Assembly: GCA_027459745.1 (NCBI GenBank)
Contig: DAIDHL010000004.1
Location: forward strand, 15,240 to 79,239
Reading direction: 5' to 3'
DNA from: Candidatus Levyibacteriota bacterium
GTDB taxonomy: Bacteria > Patescibacteriota > Microgenomatia > Levybacterales > UBA12049
Length of the DNA stretch: 64,000 bases
Below, one piece after another: positions 10,405-47,948 of this stretch. A model generated the notes under the pieces. The model saw only the letters and a program-made list of their open reading frames with translations. It did no database searches and was not told where the DNA came from. The first letter of the stretch is position 1. Each line of letters starts with the position of its first letter. The position numbers and the translations under genes are program-made.

Positions 10405-10473
10405 CCGTTATCAGAAATATAATTAATTGCGGACTAATTGTCAATTGATATTCCGGTAATATTAATTTAATTT

Positions 10474-10482
10474 TGCTACAAT
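10474..10482 (+). promoter_or_regulatory. extended -10 element TGCTACAAT for the LCP gene
   Basis: TGn plus TACAAT lies 21 nt upstream of ATG 10503 with no SD in between. Confidence 0.4.
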
Positions 10483-10502
10483 ATTTACCTAACAAATATA
10501 TT

Positions 10503-11537
10503 ATGCCTCAGACTGAAAAAAAATCACTTCCTTTGATAGTTAGAATTATCATCTGTGTACTAGCTGCGGTTATTTTCTATATTTTTGGCTACAGTTTATA
10601 TATTTTAACCCGTGTACAACAATTTGTGGCCACCAGTACTACCCAAAAAATCGCAGTTACACCTCCAGTCAACTTACCCAATCTATCAAATCAGACAAAC
10701 ATTTTACTCTTAGGCAGTGATAATGATCAAAAATTTACCGGCAATCCACTTACACAAACTATGATGATTGTGCACATTGATTATACTAAGAAAGAAATTG
10801 ATATGTTCTCAATACCTAGGGATTTATGGGTAAAAATGCCAAACCTTAACACCTACGGAAAGATTGATCAGGCTGCAGAATATAACGGCATACCCTCTGC
10901 AATTGCGGTCGTTGAACAAACTTTTGGTATCCCTATAAATCATTATGCCTGGGTGGGATTGTATGGATTTATCAAAAGTATTGACGCTATAGGTGGTGTT
11001 AATATCGACGCCGTACATCCAGTACTTGATAATGCCTACCCTACCGATATCGGCAGTAATAATCCTTATGGAGTTCAGAGATTAGATATTCAAGCAGGTA
11101 TGCAACACATGGACGGACAAGAAGCCTTGCAGTATGTTAGATCCCGTCATGAAGATTTAATTGGAGATTTTGGCCGTACTCAACGGCAAAGACAGCTTTT
11201 ATTAACTTTAAAACAAACCTTATTACAATCTAAATCCTCTCTTTTGGATGTCCCACAAATTTTTGACAGTCTCAAGGGACAAATAAAAACCGACATCGAT
11301 CCACTTATTGCCATGCAACTCGCAACATTTTACATCACCAATAAAAGCACTATACAACAAAAACAATACACACTTACTCCCGGAGAATATTCACAAGTCG
11401 GTAATTCTACCGATGGACAAAGTATAGTTATAGCTGATCCTAACACATCATCTCAATTAGTAGGTAAAATATTCGGAGCCAAGGCACAGGAAATTACTCT
11501 ACAAAGTCTGTTGAATGAGAAAGGTATACAACCATGA
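10503..11537 (+). CDS. LytR-CpsA-Psr (LCP) family cell-envelope phosphotransferase
   Basis: N-terminal TM, then LLLGSDNDQ...MMIVHID...SIPRDLWV...GGVNIDAVHPV...DGQEALQYVRSRH..GDFGRTQRQRQLL. The track ORF starts at TTG 10473 and includes the TGCTACAAT promoter. ATG 10503 is the more likely start. Confidence 0.85.
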   Translation: MPQTEKKSLPLIVRIIICVLAAVIFYIFGYSLYILTRVQQFVATSTTQKIAVTPPVNLPNLSNQTNILLLGSDNDQKFTGNPLTQTMMIVHIDYTKKEIDMFSIPRDLWVKMPNLNTYGKIDQAAEYNGIPSAIAVVEQTFGIPINHYAWVGLYGFIKSIDAIGGVNIDAVHPVLDNAYPTDIGSNNPYGVQRLDIQAGMQHMDGQEALQYVRSRHEDLIGDFGRTQRQRQLLLTLKQTLLQSKSSLLDVPQIFDSLKGQIKTDIDPLIAMQLATFYITNKSTIQQKQYTLTPGEYSQVGNSTDGQSIVIADPNTSSQLVGKIFGAKAQEITLQSLLNEKGIQP

Positions 11538-20253: not shown

Positions 20254-20302
20254 AGCTGTATTTTAGCATGATATACTTGTTTTGACAAGCATAATAGAAC
20301 CT

Positions 20303-21958
20303 ATGACTGATCTGTTTCGCAAAGGCTTAGACCTTATTCTAAAACGTCAAACCAACATCTTATCCGCAGCATTTGTCATAATGTCTACCGTAGTTTTATC
20401 ACAGCTGTTGGGCATAGTGAAAAAGCGTCTGTTAGTGTCTATCTTTGGACCCACCAACGCCGTAGGTGTATATACGGCAGCCTCTGTTTTGCCTGATTTT
20501 CTTTTTCAAGTAGTCATTGCAGTTGCCCTTTCCAGCGCCTTTATTCCTATTTTTGCTAATTACTTGAGTAAGAATGAGGAAAAAGAAGCGAATGAAATGG
20601 CCTCTGCTTTACTTACTGTAGGGTCGTCATTATTTATTATCTTGGGTGTAGTTCTAGCCATTTGCGCACCGTTCGTTTTACAAATTATGAATCTGGGCTC
20701 TGGTTTTTCTCCAGACCAAATGGCTTTAATGGTCAATTTAATGCGCTTACTACTGATTGGACAATTAATGTTTTTAATTGGTGTCTTCTTCACAGCTTTG
20801 TTACAAACGCATAATCACTTTTTTGTTCCTGGTTTTGCCGCAGCTTTGTATAACTTAGGTATCATCATAGGCATTTTGGCATTTAAGCAATACGGCATGT
20901 ATGGACCGACTATCGGCAATATCATCGGGGCTGCCTTATTTGTTTCATTGCAAATTCCCGTCATTCGCAAAGTAGGTTTTCACTTTAAGATAAATTTTGA
21001 TTTTCGTAATTCCGGCTTACAAAAGGTGTTGCATTTGATGTGGCCACGATCTATCTCAAATATTGTTTTCAATCTTTCTTCTGTCCTCACCATTTCTTTG
21101 ATCTCATTTATGCCCTCTGCAGGCAGAAATTATGTACTTTTGGATCTGGCGCAAGCGCTGGCTTTTGCTCCTGTTACGCTTTTTGGTCAATCGATAGCCC
21201 AAGCTGCATTCCCCGTCTTAGCCAAGGAAAAAGATAATCCAGAAGAATTTAAATCAACTTTCATTACCAGCTTCAATCAAATGTTATATTTAGTTCTGCC
21301 AGTATCGGTTCTGCTATTAGTTCTACGCATTCCAATAGTTCGTCTTATTTATGGTGCTTCAACTAATTTCGACTGGCCTGCGACAGTATTAACTGGCAGA
21401 ACGCTCGCATTTTTTAGTATCGCTATCTTTTCTGAAAGTTTGAAGGCTTTACTCGCACGCAGTTTTTATGCATTACATGACACCAAGACACTTTTGGTCA
21501 GTAGTACATTGAGTACATTTTTGATGTTGGGACTATCTGCCTACTTTATCGTCGGTTTAAAATTAGGCATTATGTCTATCGCTTTTTCGTACTCAGTTGC
21601 GAGCATTTTGGAAATGTGTATTTTGTTTTTAATTTTAGAACACCGTTTGCACGGATTTGACCGCAAGTTCCTGGTTTTCTCCTGGTTGAAAATCTTTTCG
21701 GCCACTTTTTTCACTGCCTTTGCCCTTTATATACCTATTAAACTTCTCGACCAACTAGTCTTTGATACAACCAAAACTATTAATCTTTTATTACTAACCG
21801 GTATTTCAAGTTTGGCTGGCATAGTTATTTATGTGTTTCTTACCTGGTTGTTTAACGTCAAAGAAGCCTTTACTTATGTGGTAATGTTCAAAAAGCTTGG
21901 TACCTGGCGAGATATCATGAAAAAACAATCCGAAATCATAGAAAACACCAAGTTTTAA
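20303..21958 (+). CDS. murJ: lipid II flippase MurJ (MviN)
   Basis: About 14 TM helices with a MurJ-like N-terminus (ILSAAFVIMSTVVLSQLLGIVKKRLLVSIFG). The track ORF starts at TTG 20282. ATG 20303 is preceded by CATAAT. Confidence 0.85.
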   Translation: MTDLFRKGLDLILKRQTNILSAAFVIMSTVVLSQLLGIVKKRLLVSIFGPTNAVGVYTAASVLPDFLFQVVIAVALSSAFIPIFANYLSKNEEKEANEMASALLTVGSSLFIILGVVLAICAPFVLQIMNLGSGFSPDQMALMVNLMRLLLIGQLMFLIGVFFTALLQTHNHFFVPGFAAALYNLGIIIGILAFKQYGMYGPTIGNIIGAALFVSLQIPVIRKVGFHFKINFDFRNSGLQKVLHLMWPRSISNIVFNLSSVLTISLISFMPSAGRNYVLLDLAQALAFAPVTLFGQSIAQAAFPVLAKEKDNPEEFKSTFITSFNQMLYLVLPVSVLLLVLRIPIVRLIYGASTNFDWPATVLTGRTLAFFSIAIFSESLKALLARSFYALHDTKTLLVSSTLSTFLMLGLSAYFIVGLKLGIMSIAFSYSVASILEMCILFLILEHRLHGFDRKFLVFSWLKIFSATFFTAFALYIPIKLLDQLVFDTTKTINLLLLTGISSLAGIVIYVFLTWLFNVKEAFTYVVMFKKLGTWRDIMKKQSEIIENTKF

Positions 21959-25363: not shown

Positions 25364-26254
25364 ATGCATTCATCTAATTGGAAACGTTTGGTACTTATTG
25401 GTTTTATTGCCATTTTATTAGTGGCCATCCCAGTGGCATTATATTTAGTTAAACAAACGACTAATACAGCATCACACGCTACTCCAGCTACTAATTTAAC
25501 GTTTACTCCACCTTCCAGTAATCCAGCACCTATTACGGCCAACGTTGGAGATACTGTTCCCTTAACATTAAACATTGATCCTGGGACTAATTTAGTTACT
25601 TCAGTCAAGGTTTATATTCAATACGATCCTACCAAACTCAGTGCTTCCAGTACTTCATTTACTGTGAATAATTCTGCTTTTCCTGTTACAGTCGATGGCC
25701 CTACTTATTCTCCAGGTTCTATTTCTTTTTCTGTATCTATCGGAGCTGATTATACCAAAGCGATTCAATCTCCTACCAGCGTAGGTACTTTAACTTTTAC
25801 AGCTTTAGCAGCTACTAATCCTAATACTCCTACCCAAGTAAGCGTTACAACTCAATCTCAAGTCTTATCTGCCGGACCAAATGACCAATATCCAGAAAAC
25901 GTACTACTGTCAAGACCTATCGCTTATATCGCAGTTAATGGTCCTGCTCAACCTTCCCTTACTCCAACAGGGGTGCCTGGACCCACAGCTACACCTATAC
26001 CCGGACAACCGACTAATACTCCCACACCGACATTAGAAGCCACTCCAACCTCTACTCCTGCAGCTACACCAGTGGCAATTGCAACGCCTACAACCGCTGT
26101 AGTAGCTGTTATTGCTAATCCAACAGATACTCCGGTTCCCCCCTTACCTAGTGCAACTATAGCCGCTACTGGCTCTACAGATATAACATTTGGTGCTGGT
26201 GCTATATTAACAGTACTTTCTGTTATCGGTGGTGTAATCTTCTTCGTGCTATAG
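25364..26254 (+). CDS. surface protein with an N-terminal TM or signal, an Ig-like domain, a Pro/Thr-rich linker and a C-terminal hydrophobic anchor
   Basis: 296 aa with TPTPT/ATPT repeats. The C-terminus is ...LPSATIAATGSTDITFGAGAILTVLSVIGGVIFFVL*. Confidence 0.6.
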   Translation: MHSSNWKRLVLIGFIAILLVAIPVALYLVKQTTNTASHATPATNLTFTPPSSNPAPITANVGDTVPLTLNIDPGTNLVTSVKVYIQYDPTKLSASSTSFTVNNSAFPVTVDGPTYSPGSISFSVSIGADYTKAIQSPTSVGTLTFTALAATNPNTPTQVSVTTQSQVLSAGPNDQYPENVLLSRPIAYIAVNGPAQPSLTPTGVPGPTATPIPGQPTNTPTPTLEATPTSTPAATPVAIATPTTAVVAVIANPTDTPVPPLPSATIAATGSTDITFGAGAILTVLSVIGGVIFFVL

Positions 26255-38675: not shown

Positions 38676-40634
38676 ATGACTGCAGCTGAAATACTCAACA
38701 AATATATCGCTTTTTTTGAAGCACATGGACACAAAAGAATTGCCGGTGCGCCTCTGATTCCGCAGAATGATCCTACTACCCTTTTTACTAGTTCTGGTAT
38801 GCAACCCCTCATCCCATATTTAATGGGTGAAGTACATCCTGATGGAACCCGCTTAGTGAATGCCCAAAATGCCTTTCGTGCCGTAGATATCGAAGAAGTT
38901 GGAGATGACAGACATACCACTTTTTTCAGAATGCTAGGCAACTGGAGCTTGGGAGATTACTTCAAGGCCGATGAAATTCCTTGGTTATATGAATTTTTAA
39001 CTAATAAACAAACAGGCTTAGGAATTGATCCAACTAAATTACATTTTACGGTTTTTAAAGGCTTTGAGGATATTCCCCAAGATAACGAGGCTTATAAAAT
39101 CTGGGAAGAAGTTTTGCAGATTGCTGGTGTTAAAGATTACCAAGATCGCTTGCATTGGTATGGAGCAGAAAAAAACTGGTGGTCGCGAGCGGGAACTCCC
39201 GATAAAATGCCTGTAGGAGAAATTGGTGGTCCTGATACCGAAGTATTTTATGACTTTGGCGATGAAAATATTCATAAGCAGAGTCTGTGGGCAGATCAAC
39301 CATGTCATGTTAACTGTGATTGTGGACGTTACTGGGAAATTGCTAATAGCGTGTTCATGCAATATAGGAAAACAGAGAAAGGAAAATTTGAGAAACTTCC
39401 CAAACAAAATGTCGATTTTGGTGGAGGGTTAGAAAGACTTCTCGGAGCGGTAGACGGACTAACTGATATGTTCCAAACTTCTCTATTTAAACCTACTATT
39501 GCGACCCTAGAACAACAAACTGGTAAATCTTATGCTGATAACAAACAATCCATGCAAATTATTACTGATCATCTGGGAGCCAGCTGTTTGATAATAGTTA
39601 ATGGAGTTAAACCCGCTAATAAAGATCAGGGATATGTATTGCGCCGTCTTTTAAGACGTGCTTTTGATAATTTCAGCTTACTTGGCGGGAAAGACATTTT
39701 ACCTGTTTTGGAAACAATAATCGGCCAGTACAATGAGACCGACCCCATTCTCGAACAACAATTTGAAGAAATTAAAAATACAATTTTAGAAGAATTACAA
39801 AAATACGAACATACCAAGCATGAAGCTAAGAAGTTTATAGAGAAAAAGTATGGAAATAATGTCATTGCGAAGAACGAAGTGACGAAGCAATCTAGCCCGG
39901 ATCTGATAAAAAACAATGAGATTGCCGCGCTCTCCCGACAAGTCGGGATCGCTCGCAGTGACGGGAAATCACCCTTACATGATGGTGATACCAGAGAAAT
40001 CTCTGCGGACGATGCCTTCATCTTGTATACCACTCATGGATTATCTCCTACACAAATTAAAAGTCTAGGTTATTCATTTAATGATCAGGAATTTGCCCAA
40101 AAAATGGAAGAACATCAAAAACTTTCCCGCTCAGGAGCAGAAAAGAAATTCCGAGGAGGTTTGGCAGACCATAGCAAGAAAACTGTCATGGGGCATACTG
40201 CTACTCACTTAATGCATCAAGCCTTACGCGACGTGCTGGGAAACCAGATTCATCAGTCTGGCTCAAATATCACCAGCGAAAGAATCCGTTTTGACTTTAA
40301 CTTTGATCGCAAGCTTACTGAAGATGAAATTAAACAAGTGGAAACAATTGTTAATAAAAAGATAAAAGAGAACCTACCCGTACACTTTGAGCTAATTCCA
40401 ACCAAAGAAGCATATGACATGGGGGCAATTGGACTGTTCATGGATACTTATGGCGAGAAATCCAAAATCTACTTTATAGGCGATACTGCGAAAAGTTATA
40501 AAGATGCTTACTCTATTGAATTTTGTGGTGGTCCACATGTTGATTTTACAGGACAGCTAAAATCGTTTAAGATAATAAAGCAAGAGAATCTAGGTGCAAA
40601 CCTTAAACGTCTCTATGCAGCTGTGGGAGATTAA
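38676..40634 (+). CDS. alaS: alanyl-tRNA synthetase, short form lacking the C-terminal C-Ala domain, with an insertion in the tRNA-recognition region
   Basis: Catalytic N-terminus (DPTTLFTSSGMQPL..., FFRMLGNWSLGDYFK). Editing-domain HTATHLMHQALRDVLG and ...CGGPHV near the C-terminus. 652 aa, against about 870 for canonical AlaRS. Confidence 0.9.
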   Translation: MTAAEILNKYIAFFEAHGHKRIAGAPLIPQNDPTTLFTSSGMQPLIPYLMGEVHPDGTRLVNAQNAFRAVDIEEVGDDRHTTFFRMLGNWSLGDYFKADEIPWLYEFLTNKQTGLGIDPTKLHFTVFKGFEDIPQDNEAYKIWEEVLQIAGVKDYQDRLHWYGAEKNWWSRAGTPDKMPVGEIGGPDTEVFYDFGDENIHKQSLWADQPCHVNCDCGRYWEIANSVFMQYRKTEKGKFEKLPKQNVDFGGGLERLLGAVDGLTDMFQTSLFKPTIATLEQQTGKSYADNKQSMQIITDHLGASCLIIVNGVKPANKDQGYVLRRLLRRAFDNFSLLGGKDILPVLETIIGQYNETDPILEQQFEEIKNTILEELQKYEHTKHEAKKFIEKKYGNNVIAKNEVTKQSSPDLIKNNEIAALSRQVGIARSDGKSPLHDGDTREISADDAFILYTTHGLSPTQIKSLGYSFNDQEFAQKMEEHQKLSRSGAEKKFRGGLADHSKKTVMGHTATHLMHQALRDVLGNQIHQSGSNITSERIRFDFNFDRKLTEDEIKQVETIVNKKIKENLPVHFELIPTKEAYDMGAIGLFMDTYGEKSKIYFIGDTAKSYKDAYSIEFCGGPHVDFTGQLKSFKIIKQENLGANLKRLYAAVGD

Positions 40635-40705: not shown

Positions 40706-43132
40706 ATGAACCTGCCATTTTTTTCAAAGGGGAAACCAAAAACTCAAATCAGCTATTTCCTCGCTTTAACTCTACGCGATGAACAAATAGGAGCATACGT
40801 TCTTAAAGAAGAAGAAAGTAAGTTACACCTTATAGGTAAAAGTGAGGAGACATTAGATAAATCCATCGAACAACTAGATTTTAAAAATTGGATCGATATT
40901 TTAGATCGCACGATCAGTCAAGCAGAAAATTCATTACCCAAAAATGTCATGACGCGCAACACCATGTTTGGCGTCAAAGAAAGCTGGGTAGAGGAAAATA
41001 AAATCAAAACAGATTATCTACACAAACTCAAACAGGTTTGTGATGAATTAGGCTTACAGCCAACCGGTTTTTTGGTTATATCCGAAGCAATAGCTCACCG
41101 TTTGCAACAGGAAGAAGGAGCGCCTCTAACCGCTATCTTAGTAGAAATTGGCAAAAGCCAGATGACTGTTTCCCATGTTAGAGCAGGAAAAATCTTAGAA
41201 ACTAAACACACTATAATTATTGAATCGGCTGCGAGAACGCTTGATGCTTTACTCAAACACTTTATTACCGCTACTGTGCTACCAGCCAGAATTATTTTGT
41301 TTGATGGAAATAATACAGAAAATTTGACACAAGAGTTTATTGCACATCAGTGGAGTAAGAGTTTGCCTTTTCTTCACATGCCACAGATCACCCCTCTACC
41401 TCATGGTTTCGATGCACGCTCAGTCATCCTAGGGGCTGCTGAACAAATGGGACTACAAGTTTCTAGTGATATTAACATGGCAGGATTGCCAGAAAAGTCA
41501 GCTGAGGTGCCTCCTTCATTAATGGATAATTTACAGCCTGTGGCTCCAATTATTGATACCAATAATAATCAATCGACATCCGAAATCCTTCCCACTGGTG
41601 AGGAATCAACTGACACCATGGCACGTGAGTTTGAAAAAAGATTAAGCGAAAGATTAAACGAAGAAGACCACAGTCAAGAAAAAACTGTCGAAGATACCGC
41701 TGTTGTTACAGCTGAAGAATTTGGATTTGTAAAGGGAATCGATATTACGACTTTGCCCCATAAAGAAACACCAACAATGACTGAAAATAAGAATTCCGAA
41801 TTATCCGAAAGTTTAAAAGTTCAGCCAGATTATAACAATGACTACACAAGCCATAATCTTGAGACAGCAGCAGAATCTACAAAATCACATAAGACATTCT
41901 CACTGACAGCTTTGCCTTTAAATTTGGAATTTATAAAAAAACTTTTTCATAAATTTATCACAGACAAATCAGACTCTCCTGTAGAGTCTGGAATACCACG
42001 CTGGCTGATTATAGTTCCAGCAGTTTTGCTGGTAATAGTTGCAGGAATCATCTGGTATATTTTCAATGTCAAAGCTACGGTTGATCTTACGCTCAAGCCG
42101 AAAATTGTCGAGGAACAAGGGACTATCACTTTTGCTCTAGGTTCTGGTAATGACTTTTCTAATGATACAGTTGGAGCTCAAGATGTCTCAGTTGACTTAA
42201 GCGGGACTGCCAGTACTACCACTACCGGCAGTAAAGATGTAGGAACTCCTGCCAAGGGTGCAGTCACTGTTTATAATAATTCTGACAGTCCTGAAACCCT
42301 AGCTTCAGGTACCACTGTCACCTCAACAAACAATCTTGTGTTTACCCTGGATAATGATGTGACTATTGCTTCAGCCTCAGGAGATGTTTTCAGCGGTACC
42401 AAACCAGGGACTGCTGATGTAAATGTCACAGCCAAAGATATCGGTTCTCAATATAATCTTCCTTCGGGTATGACATTTTCTATCAACGCCGGCAATTCAG
42501 TAGCTGCTAAAAATAATAATGCTTTCAGTGGAGGAAGTAAAAAAACTGTTACAGTTGTCTCTCAGGCAGATATTAATAAGTTATTAACTTCTCTACCTCA
42601 AAGTCTAACAGACAAGGCGAAGAGTCAATTACAAAGCCAGATCTCAGGTGATCAAACACTTTTACCCGGCATAATCAGTCAGGAATTTAAGTCTAAATCT
42701 TTTAATCACAATCTTGGAGATCAAACTAATTCAGTCACACTTACAGCAACTATTACATTTCACGGGGCGGCATATAAAAGCCAAGACTTACAAGATTTAG
42801 CCAAAACTATGTTAAAAGATAAATTTACAGGGAATTCATCTTTATCTGATAAAGGAATTACGGCTAACGTTAACAAATTGCAACCATCTTCTGATGGTAA
42901 ATCTATCGGCGCAACTCTTGACTTACAAGCTGGACTTCTACCCAATATTGATACTTCAAGTTTAGTTACACAAATCACTGGTAAAACTGCTAATCAAGCC
43001 ACACAAATTCTAAATGGGATACCCCAAATTGAATCAAGTACCATCCAGCTCAGCCCGCATATTCCCCTGATACCACAAATTTTGCCACGCTTTTCCAAAC
43101 ACATCATAATTGAAGTCAACGGAAATGGCTAA
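40706..43132 (+). CDS. large bitopic membrane protein with a cytoplasmic N-domain, one TM, and an extracellular T/S/N/G-rich beta-rich domain
   Basis: 808 aa with TM IPRWLIIVPAVLLVIVAGIIWYIF at about aa 435. The N-domain pattern ...LAILVEIGKSQMTVSHVRAGKIL... suggests a degenerate actin-like (FtsA/PilM-like) fold, which is an inference. The 3' end overlaps the sortase gene by 23 nt. Confidence 0.6.
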   Translation: MNLPFFSKGKPKTQISYFLALTLRDEQIGAYVLKEEESKLHLIGKSEETLDKSIEQLDFKNWIDILDRTISQAENSLPKNVMTRNTMFGVKESWVEENKIKTDYLHKLKQVCDELGLQPTGFLVISEAIAHRLQQEEGAPLTAILVEIGKSQMTVSHVRAGKILETKHTIIIESAARTLDALLKHFITATVLPARIILFDGNNTENLTQEFIAHQWSKSLPFLHMPQITPLPHGFDARSVILGAAEQMGLQVSSDINMAGLPEKSAEVPPSLMDNLQPVAPIIDTNNNQSTSEILPTGEESTDTMAREFEKRLSERLNEEDHSQEKTVEDTAVVTAEEFGFVKGIDITTLPHKETPTMTENKNSELSESLKVQPDYNNDYTSHNLETAAESTKSHKTFSLTALPLNLEFIKKLFHKFITDKSDSPVESGIPRWLIIVPAVLLVIVAGIIWYIFNVKATVDLTLKPKIVEEQGTITFALGSGNDFSNDTVGAQDVSVDLSGTASTTTTGSKDVGTPAKGAVTVYNNSDSPETLASGTTVTSTNNLVFTLDNDVTIASASGDVFSGTKPGTADVNVTAKDIGSQYNLPSGMTFSINAGNSVAAKNNNAFSGGSKKTVTVVSQADINKLLTSLPQSLTDKAKSQLQSQISGDQTLLPGIISQEFKSKSFNHNLGDQTNSVTLTATITFHGAAYKSQDLQDLAKTMLKDKFTGNSSLSDKGITANVNKLQPSSDGKSIGATLDLQAGLLPNIDTSSLVTQITGKTANQATQILNGIPQIESSTIQLSPHIPLIPQILPRFSKHIIIEVNGNG

Positions 43133-43877
43133 TAAGTATTACTACCACAAAAGAGATATTCAAAAAATCCGGGAAATTGTCCGTTATATTGGTTTAGCAA
43201 TTTTTTTAACTGGTATTTTGGGCTTGCTTTATGTTTTTTTCCCATTAGTATCCTGGCAGATCTATTTAGTTCCACAATTAGCTTCACAGGACGTGGTCTC
43301 ACCTATACCTGATCAATCAGTACTATCTTCTAATTCGGTCGGGTCTTTGATACAAGATTCTATAAAAGATATCGGAGTAAATTACTCTAATGCAAATAAT
43401 TGGTTTCCCGGATACGCTCCTGAGAATTCTAGTAAATCTTCCTCTGTGCATATTTTTTATCTTTCCATTCCAGCCTTGAATATTTATCATGCAACTGTAA
43501 GTAATGCAGATAATGATTTGGATCATCATTTGGTAAATTTCGCCGGTACAGCTTCTCCCCCTGAAAAAGGCAATACAGTTATATTTGGTCATTCAACTCT
43601 ACCTCAGTGGTTTGATCCGCATAACTACAAGGCTATCTTTGCCACCGCTCTCAATTTAAAAGTTGGCGATAAAATTATTGCTACAGTTAATGGAGCAGAT
43701 TATAACTATGTCATTGATAACATCAGCATTGTTAATGCAGATGACTACACGCCTTTAGAACAACAATATGATGATAGTTATATGACAATTATCACCTGTA
43801 CCCCACCTGGAACTACCTGGAAACGCCTTGTTATTCATTCTCGTCTTGCAAAGTTAACAAATTCTTCTCTACAATAG
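43110..43877 (+). CDS. sortase family transpeptidase
   Basis: N-terminal TM anchor, catalytic His (VIFGHS), a TLXTC-type motif (MTIITCTP) and a conserved Arg (RLVIHSRL). Confidence 0.8.
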   Translation: MKSTEMANKYYYHKRDIQKIREIVRYIGLAIFLTGILGLLYVFFPLVSWQIYLVPQLASQDVVSPIPDQSVLSSNSVGSLIQDSIKDIGVNYSNANNWFPGYAPENSSKSSSVHIFYLSIPALNIYHATVSNADNDLDHHLVNFAGTASPPEKGNTVIFGHSTLPQWFDPHNYKAIFATALNLKVGDKIIATVNGADYNYVIDNISIVNADDYTPLEQQYDDSYMTIITCTPPGTTWKRLVIHSRLAKLTNSSLQ

Positions 43878-44206
43878 AGATATTAATAGAAGGTTTGTCG
43901 TAGTTTCGAGTCGGAGGACTGATTGTCTATTTTTAGAATCAACAACTTGAGCTTGAGCAAAGATTTTAATATTTTTATACTCAACTCGTTTTATTTTCAA
44001 ACTTATGAATCCCAACATTACTACTCGTTTTCAAGCTGTGATGAAACAAATCTGGCCTACTGTATATAAAATAATCAACAGCACGATATATTTTTTAATT
44101 GAACTCATTCGCTCTGCAGTAAGGATTGCAATAGAACAAATCAAAAACGGTGGTGCATAAATAGTTATAAAGATGGAATTTATAACGTTTATAAATCTTT
44201 CTCTCT

Positions 44207-45491: not shown

Positions 45492-46475
45492 ATGCACAGA
45501 CGCAGATCTCACTCAAATATGAATAGATTAGCTGTTTTTTTTACTATTGTATTGGTGATTATAGCCGGAGCAGGGGTTGTGTGGTGGAATCATGGTTCTG
45601 GTGCGCTTAACCCTAATGATACCTCAGCCAAGTTATTTGTGGTCCAATCTGGAGAATCATTACGAGAAATTGCCGGCTCACTGCAGCAAAATAATTTAAT
45701 TGTTGATACCAATATCTTCTACCTTATTGTTAAACAAAATAATCTAGAAAATAAGTTACAAGCTGGTGAGTTTAAATTGTCCGCTAGTATGACCCCCCTA
45801 CAAATCGCCCAGACATTAACTAAAGGTAGTCTCAATGTCTGGATCACAATCCCAGAAGGTAAGCGTGCTACAGAGATCGCCCAAATTTTACAGGCACATT
45901 TTCCCCAATATACCCCTGACTGGGAACAAAAATTAATTTCACAAGAAGGCTATTTATTCCCCGACACCTACCTTTTTCCCCAAGACGTCACGATTGATCA
46001 GATAATTAGCACAATGAGAAATAATTTTAACAAAAAGTTTGATAGTGTACCTACTAATCCCGACAATCCATTTACAGAAAAACAAATTGTTACAGTTGCC
46101 TCTTTAGTGGAACGGGAAGCAAAATATCCTGAAGATAGACCCCTAGTCGCATCTGTGATCTATAATCGTTTAAATTCGGGTATGCCACTACAAATCGATG
46201 CCTCTATTCAGTATGCAATGGGTACTCCTTCAAATTGGTGGCCTGTATTGACCGATAGTGGCGGTAATATTCTTCCAAATTCTGCATATAATACATACAC
46301 TAGAACTGGTTTGCCCCCAACTCCTATCTCAAATCCCGGATTAAGTTCACTGGCAGCGGCTATAAAACCAAACCAATCCAGTTATCTTTATTATGTCTCT
46401 GATAAGAATGGACATAACCATTATGAAACAACTCTTAGTCAACATAACGCTGATATCACCAGATACGGATTGTAA
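45492..46475 (+). CDS. mltG: endolytic murein transglycosylase MltG (YceG family)
   Basis: N-terminal TM and the YceG signature ...GLPPTPISNPGLSSLAAAIKP..SSYLYYV. Confidence 0.85.
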   Translation: MHRRRSHSNMNRLAVFFTIVLVIIAGAGVVWWNHGSGALNPNDTSAKLFVVQSGESLREIAGSLQQNNLIVDTNIFYLIVKQNNLENKLQAGEFKLSASMTPLQIAQTLTKGSLNVWITIPEGKRATEIAQILQAHFPQYTPDWEQKLISQEGYLFPDTYLFPQDVTIDQIISTMRNNFNKKFDSVPTNPDNPFTEKQIVTVASLVEREAKYPEDRPLVASVIYNRLNSGMPLQIDASIQYAMGTPSNWWPVLTDSGGNILPNSAYNTYTRTGLPPTPISNPGLSSLAAAIKPNQSSYLYYVSDKNGHNHYETTLSQHNADITRYGL

Positions 46476-46509: not shown

Positions 46510-46875
46510 CTATTTTTTAACGGCTTTTCTGAAGAATTTGTGACCGGAAGTTATTCTTCTTACAGGTTGAGCAGGTTTTGCAGGTACTACTTTTTCTTCC
46601 GAAACTTGTTCATCTGGCATTTCACTTTCCAGCGGTTCGTCCATTTCGTCTTCGGGATCAATAATTTCTCCATCATCTTCCATAGCGCGTAAAATGTCCT
46701 CAACTTCATTGAATTTGCTCATACCTTCTTCAGATAAGGTTTGTAAAATTTGCCTTCCTTTTTTGGTGGTAAACATGAGGGTAACTAATACACCTACGAC
46801 TAAACCCAGAACGAACCCGTTCAACGAAGAACCAGATTTTATTTGTTGTACAGGCAGATATTCATTATTCTTCAT
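46510..46875 (-). CDS. YtxH-like small membrane protein with an acidic C-terminus
   Basis: GFVLGLVVGVLVTLMFTTKKGRQILQTL helix, then an E/D-rich tail. The start is taken at the second ATG. Confidence 0.45.
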   Translation of the reverse strand: MKNNEYLPVQQIKSGSSLNGFVLGLVVGVLVTLMFTTKKGRQILQTLSEEGMSKFNEVEDILRAMEDDGEIIDPEDEMDEPLESEMPDEQVSEEKVVPAKPAQPVRRITSGHKFFRKAVKK

Positions 46876-47161
46876 GGTGTCGGTCTTTATGTTCATCTCG
46901 TTTCAAGAATGTCTTAATAATTTTTGCCACCGCCATAAACGAGCCAGAACTGACCAATCCACTTATTCCTCCCAAAGATGACAAAGGCTTTGAGACTGCA
47001 TCAGCAATAGTATCGGCAGTATCCAGTACTTTGTTGGCCTTGAAAAGAGTGTGACGAACCTCGCGAAGAATGAAGAAGACTTGTACACCAAGCACTACCA
47101 ACAATAACGTAAGAACGATAATTACAAATAACAGAACAAGTTGGACAGAGTCAATGTTCAT
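46865..47161 (-). CDS. DUF948-like small membrane protein
   Basis: N-terminal TM LVLLFVIIVLTLLLVVLGVQVFFIL followed by a helical region. It overlaps the downstream YtxH-like gene. Confidence 0.45.
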   Translation of the reverse strand: MNIDSVQLVLLFVIIVLTLLLVVLGVQVFFILREVRHTLFKANKVLDTADTIADAVSKPLSSLGGISGLVSSGSFMAVAKIIKTFLKRDEHKDRHHEE

Positions 47162-47321: not shown

Positions 47322-47948
47322 TTATTTTACTTCCACGGTACGATCAATGATGGTAGTTTTACCATAATGATTTTGTGCAGTAATCTCAATCTGAGTACTA
47401 CCGGGGAGCAGCGTCAAGTCTTTGAAGAAATTACCATTTTGATCTACGGTGACCATTTCACCGTTTACTAACACTAAATCATTGGGATCTGTACTACCTT
47501 TAACCTCAATATTAGCAGGCACTACTGAGTTGTCTGTAGGACTGTTGACCTGTAAAAAAGGGCTAAAAAAAACTGATCTATATTGGAAAACTAAATAACT
47601 TAATAAAAATAAACAAATAACTACTAAAGCGATACTAGAGCGCTGGATACGCAACGTTTTGTGTTTATATTTCTCTTGGGCAAAACTATCCGGTAGCACT
47701 TTGTTAGTTTTTTTAGGATCGAACTCTCTATGAAATAAAGCTAAAGCCTCGCGACGAGGAATACCTAAATAAGAAGCATAATTGGTTACAAATCCTTGAG
47801 CATAGGTAGCTGAAGGTAATTTAGCATATTCATCACTCTCAATAGCAGAAAGAAAAGCAGGGCGGATTTTAGTAGCAGAAGATACTTCTTCCAGCGAAAG
47901 ACCTTTTTTTCTTCTCTCTTCTGACAATAATTCCCCTAGATGAACCAT
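47322..47948 (-). CDS. rodZ: RodZ-like cytoskeleton protein (HTH, TM, C-terminal domain)
   Basis: N-terminal HTH ...LSLEEVSSATKIRPAFLSAIESDEYAKLP..TYAQGFVTNYASYLGI, then a TM helix. Confidence 0.55.
   Translation of the reverse strand: MVHLGELLSEERRKKGLSLEEVSSATKIRPAFLSAIESDEYAKLPSATYAQGFVTNYASYLGIPRREALALFHREFDPKKTNKVLPDSFAQEKYKHKTLRIQRSSIALVVICLFLLSYLVFQYRSVFFSPFLQVNSPTDNSVVPANIEVKGSTDPNDLVLVNGEMVTVDQNGNFFKDLTLLPGSTQIEITAQNHYGKTTIIDRTVEVK

Follow-up and report, generated by a model that had tools for sequence, protein, structure and literature searches.

What is the large membrane protein whose gene runs into a sortase gene in a Levybacteria genome, and what does it have to do with that sortase? 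The two genes lie in a 64,000-nucleotide stretch of Candidatus Levyibacteriota bacterium (assembly GCA_027459745.1, contig DAIDHL010000004.1, positions 15,240 to 79,239 of the forward strand), which was analysed as a whole and is referred to here as the window; coordinates count from its first letter. The window is AT-rich (GC of ~37%), and its nearest relatives are Levybacteria genomes (Levyibacteriota, Microgenomates, candidate phyla radiation (CPR)). We identified the 808-residue product of the first gene, hereafter the large protein, as a single-pass membrane protein in which a cytoplasmic domain of actin-like fold is joined by an acidic linker and one transmembrane (TM) helix to an ectodomain homologous to phage baseplate wedge proteins. 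The reading that we favour, with a rough probability of 40%, is that this protein is a transmembrane scaffold resembling GspL or PilM–PilN that partners or positions the housekeeping sortase encoded with it.

An initial annotation, made from the letters of the window and its open reading frames (ORFs), had recognized a bitopic 808-residue protein overlapped by a sortase gene. Both ORFs lie where it placed them and both are genuine coding genes; the second is recognized as a sortase by PF04203, TIGR01076 and its catalytic triad. The features of the pair, with the four parts of the large protein in their order along the chain, are as follows.

40706..43132, forward strand: gene for the large protein (808 residues, one TM helix), with an ATG start; from the ORF list and homologues
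40706..41470, forward strand: N-domain, residues 1–255, a minimal actin-like (ASKHA) fold with degenerate nucleotide-binding motifs; from AlphaFold2 and Foldseek
41471..41989, forward strand: variable acidic cytoplasmic linker, residues 256–428, with 32 Asp/Glu against 16 Lys/Arg
41714–41731, forward strand: conserved short linker motif EEFGFV, residues 337–342; from the alignment
41999..42064, forward strand: single TM helix RWLIIVPAVLLVIVAGIIWYIF, residues 432–453, the sole strongly hydrophobic segment of the large protein
42068..43129, forward strand: ectodomain, residues 455–808, a Baseplate J/gp47 homologue; from Pfam, profile and fold matches
43125..43132, forward strand: 8-nt overlap ATGGCTAA of the sortase start with the stop of the large gene, a conserved junction
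43125..43877, forward strand: sortase gene, 250 residues when read from the conserved ATG; the product has a TM anchor at its N terminus and a His-Cys-Arg triad

Domains of the large protein

For the N-domain, the initial annotation had proposed a degenerate actin-like fold of the FtsA/PilM kind, and structure prediction bears this out. An AlphaFold2 model from a 62-sequence alignment (pLDDT 88.9, pTM 0.85) consists of two β-β-β-α-β-α-β-α halves, the core of the ASKHA fold, with RNase-H-like subdomains; the inserted subdomain of the 1C/SHS2 type that PilM and FtsA carry is absent from the model, which has the two core subdomains only. Foldseek comparison with the PDB returned 752 chains at E ≤ 1e-3, led by Pseudomonas aeruginosa PilM (E = 4e-10, TMq 0.56–0.59) and followed by EutJ, PPX/GppA and FtsA (E of about 1e-10 to 1e-8). 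Because sequence searches of PDB chains with the whole protein and with the family profile gave no ASKHA match, the ASKHA identity is seen by fold comparison only. The Pfam families PilM_2 (PF11104), FtsA/SHS2, T2SSL (PF05134) and PilN are not among the 25 most-matched of the 46 families with matches in the 62 members at E ≤ 1, and the PilM, FtsA and GspL families are likewise absent from the matches of the window's own large protein.

The nucleotide-binding positions are unconserved in an alignment that spans Levybacteria, Daviesbacteria and Roizmanbacteria. The phosphate-1 position is variable (TLRDE, NISNE, QIGVP and others), with Asn, Gln, Thr or Leu in place of Asp, and an 'xIGxxxxK' outline of the hairpin survives in some lineages. 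The DxG of phosphate-2 is missing, its position reading EIGK, VGFE or LGIE, and the GG of the adenosine motif is absent before the last helix of the domain. Invariant residues lie elsewhere in the domain (F88, P119, P140, L192-P193, W216, F222-L223-H224 and P226). This pattern leads us to regard the N-domain as a probable pseudo-ATPase with a protein-binding role. In GspL, too, the cytoplasmic domain is not known to have a canonical nucleotide site, and it serves as a protein-binding adaptor.

The long acidic linker, the single TM helix and the T/S/N/G-rich ectodomain that the initial annotation described are all present. The linker (173 residues) differs in length and sequence among homologues; within EEFGFV, F341 is invariant and G340 nearly so across Levybacteria, Daviesbacteria and Roizmanbacteria. 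In homologues the TM helix occurs at the same relative position. Beyond it, the large protein contains no Cys, and Ser, Thr, Asn and Gly make up 41% of residues 471–808.

The identity of the ectodomain, on which the initial annotation was silent, is supported by sequence and by fold. Residues 513–611 match PF04865 (Baseplate_J) with E = 5e-5 and 23.1 bits, above the gathering cut-off of 21.1, and the same family is matched by 59 of the 62 members of the alignment (best E = 1.4e-8); the related GlxA beta-barrel is matched by 19 of the 62. Searched against the PDB, the family profile finds the diffocin baseplate protein TRI-2 (8v3w; E = 1.4e-4), in an alignment that pairs the conserved YNLPS/YNLP and AFSGG (F-x-GG) motifs of the two. 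An NCBIfam scan of the large protein gave no match.

The AlphaFold2 model of the ectodomain (pLDDT 91.1, pTM 0.70) is all-beta over its first ~165 residues, which form a beta-barrel, and consists of alpha/beta units thereafter, so that the beta-rich ectodomain of the initial annotation holds for the first part and not for the remainder. Foldseek matched the model to the baseplate wedge proteins of XM1, phi812, Mu (gp47), Pa193, A-1(L) and diffocin with a probability of 1.0, over alignments of ~340–360 columns, and a search of the viral structure library BFVD returned Baseplate J proteins throughout. Global TM-scores against baseplate proteins are low (~0.22), which suggests that the domains and their order are common to the large protein and the wedge proteins and that the relative arrangement of the domains either differs or is poorly predicted. 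Sequence and fold agree in placing the ectodomain among the homologues of phage baseplate wedge proteins.

The chain ends in a conserved folded strand of the form LSPxIPxxPxxLPRxxxxIxxEV..N[GE], the terminal N-[GE] of which is explained by the overlapping ATG of the sortase, which dictates these residues. The initial annotation had noted that the large protein lacks an LPXTG-like motif; indeed, neither such a C-terminal signal nor a TM helix to follow it is present at this end.

The sortase and its linkage to the large gene

The sortase matches PF04203 with E = 6e-19 (68.4 bits against a cut-off of 26.6) and TIGR01076 with E = 2.4e-16 (59.8 bits against 39.35). The motifs of its triad are intact (His in VIFGHS, Cys in IITCTP and Arg in RLVIHSR), and it has one N-terminal TM helix. 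None of the NCBIfam models for sortase classes A–F is matched above its class cut-off, the best being class C with 58.5 bits against 160, and the nearest solved structures belong to class C (for example, 4d7w and 6ixz). The sortase family is reported to be almost ubiquitous among Microgenomates (Méheust et al., PMC6744442).

Called mechanically, the sortase ORF occupies 43110..43877 on the forward strand, 255 residues counted from a TTG codon. The 23-nt overlap reported in the initial annotation depends on this TTG and does not stand: judged from sequence conservation, the start is the ATG at 43125 (MANKYY...), which gives an overlap of 8 nt. Among 77 junctions, the window's own included, 62 have the 8-nt overlap with ATG, one has GTG in the same place and five have a 4-nt overlap of the ATGA type. 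An 8-nt or 4-nt overlap is kept in 68 of the 77, at protein identities of 40–50%.

The large protein belongs to a large family. At least 455 homologue clusters at 90% identity were found among the scored candidates, full-length and at ~40% identity, and a full HMMER scan of 1.84 billion representatives gave 2,749 clusters at E ≤ 1e-30. With the threshold relaxed to E ≤ 1e-10 the number rises to 8,198, and with E ≤ 1e-3 to 11,033; phage Baseplate J proteins may be among the weaker matches. Every full-length sequence among the top 150 HMMER matches has the same architecture, and some of the 150 are truncated fragments. In GTDB contigs, with one genome per species, at least 222 genomes encode a relative.

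The initial annotation had asked whether the two genes stay adjacent in relatives, and they do. In Levybacteria, for which the best 80 loci were taken, all 76 loci that extend far enough have the sortase as the next gene after the large one. Taken alone, adjacency within Levybacteria counts for little as evidence, since synteny there covers the whole block (alaS–X–sortase–TP–mltG ... rodZ-like–ftsK, where X is the large gene); more distant lineages were therefore sampled. Members at 25–30% identity occur in Daviesbacteria, Roizmanbacteria and unclassified Patescibacteria. The arrangement in Daviesbacteria is alaS–X–sortase–ruvX–mltG; in Roizmanbacteria and the P0388 clade, mltG is upstream on the opposite strand, followed by X–sortase and then by unrelated genes. 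The pair thus stays adjacent in distant lineages although alaS, TP and ruvX vary. Across divergent Microgenomates, represented by 80 metagenome loci from a scan seeded with the most divergent member and by six loci looked up individually, 78 of the 82 loci with room for a sortase have it immediately downstream.

The four remaining loci are of two kinds. One has a single gene inserted between the large gene and the sortase. In the other three (L107, L135 and L138), a TM-anchored SGNH/GDSL hydrolase stands in place of the sortase, with a P/S/T-rich linker and the motifs AAFGDSMVDT...GIHPS:

L135, 7171–8034: SGNH/GDSL-hydrolase-like gene
L138, 7168–8037: SGNH/GDSL-hydrolase-like gene
L107, 4313–5251: SGNH/GDSL-hydrolase-like gene

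In L135 and L138 the hydrolase gene overlaps the stop codon of the large gene, as the sortase does, and in L107 a gene for a glycosyltransferase-like protein with several TM helices lies between the two. An SGNH hydrolase at the position of the sortase fits a large protein that is the partner of an ecto-enzyme.

The other steady neighbour is mltG/yceG, which is found within about two genes of the pair in most Microgenomates loci (L001–L166), on either side: most lineages have it downstream, on the same strand, and Roizmanbacteria and P0388-type loci have it upstream, on the opposite one. Taxon labels of many loci are unreliable. Many records that carry the block of the Levybacteria type are titled 'uncultured Gammaproteobacteria bacterium', Methylomirabilota or Saccharimonadales (for example, L002, L006 and L010); these are probably mislabelled or misbinned metagenome-assembled genomes.

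Candidate substrates and the surrounding locus

The initial annotation had suggested that the large protein might be a partner of the sortase rather than a substrate, and had proposed a search for proteins with C-terminal sorting signals. Such proteins exist, and one is encoded in the window. Its gene and the other features around the pair are listed here.

25364..26254, forward strand: candidate canonical sortase substrate, a cohesin-domain surface protein (cohesin PF00963) with an N-terminal anchor
45492..46475, forward strand: mltG/yceG, peptidoglycan strand-terminating lytic transglycosylase (PF02618, E = 1e-77)
38676–40634, forward strand: alanyl-tRNA synthetase (AlaRS), directly upstream of the large gene and short (652 residues)
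47322–47948 and 46510–47161, reverse strand: a RodZ-like protein and two small membrane proteins (one YtxH-like), between mltG and ftsK
10473–11537 and 20282–21958, both forward strand: an LCP (LytR-CpsA-Psr) protein and MurJ
43878–44206: non-coding gap of 329 nt between the sortase gene and a thymidine/AMP-phosphorylase-like gene

The product of ORF 25364–26254 ends in IAATG (nt 26159–26173) and then STDITFGAGAILTVLSVIGGVIFFVL, with a spacer and a TM helix after the motif. Its 76 homologues (P0121–P0196) are cohesin/PKD surface proteins from Levybacteria and other Patescibacteria, and most of the full-length ones share a C-terminal signal, [LIM][AP]xTG[SP], followed by ~8 residues, GxG and a TM helix that ends in ...GGxLFFxL with no basic tail; several lack the signal or are truncated. 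Examples are MPATGS, LAETGP and LPKTGP, and a similar C-terminus, APSATISDPGPGD followed by a TM helix, occurs at an unrelated locus. No NCBIfam model matches the [LIM][AP]xTG C-terminal signal. Having this signal, the product of ORF 25364–26254 is a predicted substrate. Five paralogues (P0166, P0167, P0176, P0180 and P0193) have a dockerin domain at their end instead, a hint of cohesin–dockerin assemblies on the cell surface.

Because LPXTG-like signals occur on the cohesin/PKD proteins and none occurs on the large protein, the latter is not an ordinary substrate, and its identity as a canonical sortase substrate was ruled out for want of a sorting signal. The suggestion of a partner accordingly gains support.

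The setting of the pair is one of housekeeping and cell-envelope genes. The window encodes SecA, SerRS, MurJ, GroEL, LepA, rpoB/C, AlaRS, MltG, FtsK, RNase J and PNPase, and the envelope functions in it comprise MurJ, LCP, MltG, the RodZ-like protein and FtsK. The presence of LCP, MurJ and MltG indicates that the organism makes peptidoglycan, a possible target for attachment by the sortase. The AlaRS gene lies upstream of the large gene in most lineages, and the domains that gene calls in related loci assign to its product are tRNA-synt_2c and tRNA_SAD only. The RodZ-like protein comprises HTH_25, a TM helix and Glucodextran_B; its gene and those of the two small membrane proteins are conserved as parts of the same block, both in Levybacteria and in further Microgenomates loci. 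Neither Rfam nor tRNA scans gave a match in the window, the 329-nt gap after the sortase included, and promoter and terminator scans around the gene pair gave background level only, with no convincing terminator in that gap.

A proposed transmembrane scaffold and its alternatives

We propose that the two genes, the translation of which is coupled, make up a cell-envelope module that Microgenomates inherit vertically, in which the large protein would act as a non-enzymatic transmembrane adaptor in the manner of GspL or of a PilM–PilN fusion. Its pseudo-actin domain would bind a cytoplasmic partner or a positional cue. The N terminus of PilN docks on PilM, and by analogy the conserved linker motif may dock onto the N-domain. 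Proteins of the Baseplate J family build oligomeric rings in phage baseplates, and the baseplate-like ectodomain could similarly self-associate on the outer face of the membrane. The large protein would then recruit or position the sortase made with it, such that surface proteins might be joined to newly made peptidoglycan at defined places; the enzyme positioned near sites of wall synthesis would, in a few lineages, be an SGNH hydrolase rather than a sortase. The persistent neighbour MltG fits such positioning near wall synthesis. A more far-reaching version, which we regard as doubtful, is that a phage baseplate wedge fold was domesticated early in Microgenomates as a core membrane protein inherited vertically and, fused to a pseudo-actin domain, forms an oligomeric trans-membrane platform that organizes the sortase-dependent display of cohesin, PKD and dockerin proteins, maybe as the base of the apparatus that these ultra-small episymbionts have at their surface or use to attach to hosts.

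The closest parallels in layout are GspL/EpsL from type II secretion systems and PilM–PilN of type IV pili, which have the same succession of a cytoplasmic ASKHA domain of ~250 residues, one TM helix and an extracytoplasmic domain; this is a resemblance and not homology. Compared with them, the large protein lacks membership of their sequence families and an inserted subdomain of the 1C type, its ectodomain is Baseplate J-like where those of PilN and GspL are small and ferredoxin-like, and it adjoins a sortase gene rather than a secretion, pilus or dcw cluster (no pilB, pilC, pilin or ftsZ adjoins it). The kinship with pilus and divisome proteins that the initial annotation had drawn therefore holds for the PilM-like fold and the GspL-like layout, and fails for sequence membership in the PilM, FtsA and GspL families and for the presence of pilus or divisome genes nearby. 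RodZ, which binds MreB, embodies the same concept of a single-pass protein that connects a cytoskeletal or positional element in the cytoplasm with the outer side of the membrane, but its cytoplasmic domain is a helix-turn-helix rather than an ASKHA domain and the two are not homologous.

Wedge proteins of contractile-tail phages and tailocins (PF04865; TRI-2 8v3w, Mu gp47 9ki1 and phi812 9euf, of the T4 gp6 type) have the YNLP and F-x-GG motifs and the domain order in common with the ectodomain, which here belongs to a membrane-anchored cellular protein, is fused to an ASKHA domain and is encoded in a housekeeping locus. The sortase, for its part, has the fold, the His-Cys-Arg triad, the N-terminal TM anchor and the LPXTG-like substrate signal of class C and other membrane-anchored sortases (PF04203). 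It differs from known sortases in being a single housekeeping copy that is coupled to the gene of a non-pilin scaffold and scores below the class cut-offs, and its candidate substrate signal ends at the TM helix without a basic tail, unlike those of known sortase substrates. Taken together, these comparisons describe the large protein as a pseudo-actin single-pass adaptor with an unprecedented ectodomain and partner enzyme.

Several observations weigh against the scaffold proposal. In three loci the large gene has no sortase beside it, so that a sortase partner is not obligatory. Synteny extends over much of the surrounding block (alaS ... mltG ... rodZ-like ... ftsK), and shared regulation without contact between the products could explain the adjacency. 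With global TM-scores of ~0.22, ring formation by the ectodomain cannot be read from the model, and the loss of nucleotide binding by the N-domain is judged from sequence motifs only. The main rival draws on the same facts: the large protein would be an envelope or morphogenesis factor that makes no contact with the sortase, for instance a peptidoglycan adaptor working with MltG or with the elongation or division machinery, in an operon shared for wall biogenesis. MltG lies close to the pair in most loci, the inverted arrangement of the Roizmanbacteria type included, the RodZ-like gene and ftsK belong to the same conserved block, and the SGNH hydrolase replaces the sortase in three loci. Against this stand the start/stop overlap with the sortase, the conservation of which is much stricter than that of the spacing to any other neighbour, and an adjacency that survives where alaS, TP and ruvX vary; we consider an envelope factor of this kind unlikely, if a serious competitor. 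Quite improbable, in our judgement, is that the large protein is a non-canonical substrate, cleaved internally or at its C terminus, or a lysine acceptor for the [LIM][AP]xTG proteins at the base of a covalent surface assembly. Translational coupling would suit such a role, since it points to the two products being made in matching quantities; Lys and Gly residues that hardly vary (KAKG, FSGGxKK) occur in the ectodomain, as does a T-G turn, 'ATGKK'; and the solved sortases nearest to ours are the pilus-building class C enzymes. However, the C terminus is a conserved folded strand with no sorting signal, canonical substrates are abundant, and a pilin motif was not found. The internal 'xATGK' was considered as a cryptic sorting motif and judged coincidental: it forms part of a beta-hairpin in the Baseplate J barrel, and the L/I/M-P/A positions are missing from it.

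The two remaining explanations take one half of the protein at face value. That the large protein is an alignment subunit of the PilM–PilN/GspL type for type IV pili or a filament machine related to them is suggested by PilM as the top structural match of the N-domain and by the succession of ASKHA domain, single TM helix and ectodomain, the layout known for GspL from the literature. This identity was rejected, with small odds left to it, because neighbouring pilus genes and a family match are absent and the ectodomain has the wrong fold: pilus genes are absent from the 64-kb window and from the genes checked in related loci, PilM_2, T2SSL, PilN and FtsA are not among the Pfam matches listed for the 62 members, and the ectodomain is of the Baseplate J rather than the PilN/GspL type. 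Moreover, CPR genomes are reported to have separate type IV pilus genes, PilM, PilN and PilO, co-localized elsewhere (PMC6744442; PMC7143001). That the large gene belongs to a phage, prophage or tailocin baseplate is the least credible of all, even though the Baseplate_J match exceeds its gathering score, the fold matches are to wedge proteins and PGAP names homologues 'baseplate J/gp47 family protein'. Sheath, tube, spike, gp25-like and gpI-like genes are absent from the window, where the neighbours are rpoB, alaS, mltG and ftsK, and gene calls and marker-gene scans of related loci show no contractile-tail genes. The position of the gene is fixed in the 160 related loci examined, from a family with relatives in at least 222 species genomes, and its product carries an N-terminal ASKHA domain and a TM helix. 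A search of 2.9 million viral contigs found no relative. A prophage or tailocin origin was rejected on the housekeeping context and on this result.

Within the CPR, Microgenomates form a large branch that is uncultivated. Their surface biology is thought to govern attachment to hosts, yet for most of the membrane proteins enriched in their lineages no function has been assigned (PMC6744442). Literature searches with sortase, baseplate and CPR terms found no paper on the large-protein family or on its coupling to a sortase, and the family's members carry the database label 'hypothetical' or the misleading one 'baseplate J/gp47 family protein'. For this family, which comprises several thousand sequence clusters, there is now an identity at the level of fold and a genetic partner that is conserved. 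A likely sorting signal of Microgenomates ([LIM][AP]xTG and a TM helix, with no basic tail) has also been defined and can be used to predict the wall-anchored surface proteome. If the large protein is indeed a scaffold for the sortase, it would be the first described dedicated membrane adaptor for a housekeeping sortase, a new variant of the pseudo-actin adaptors of the GspL/PilM type and a case in which a phage baseplate fold has been reused in a core cellular gene.

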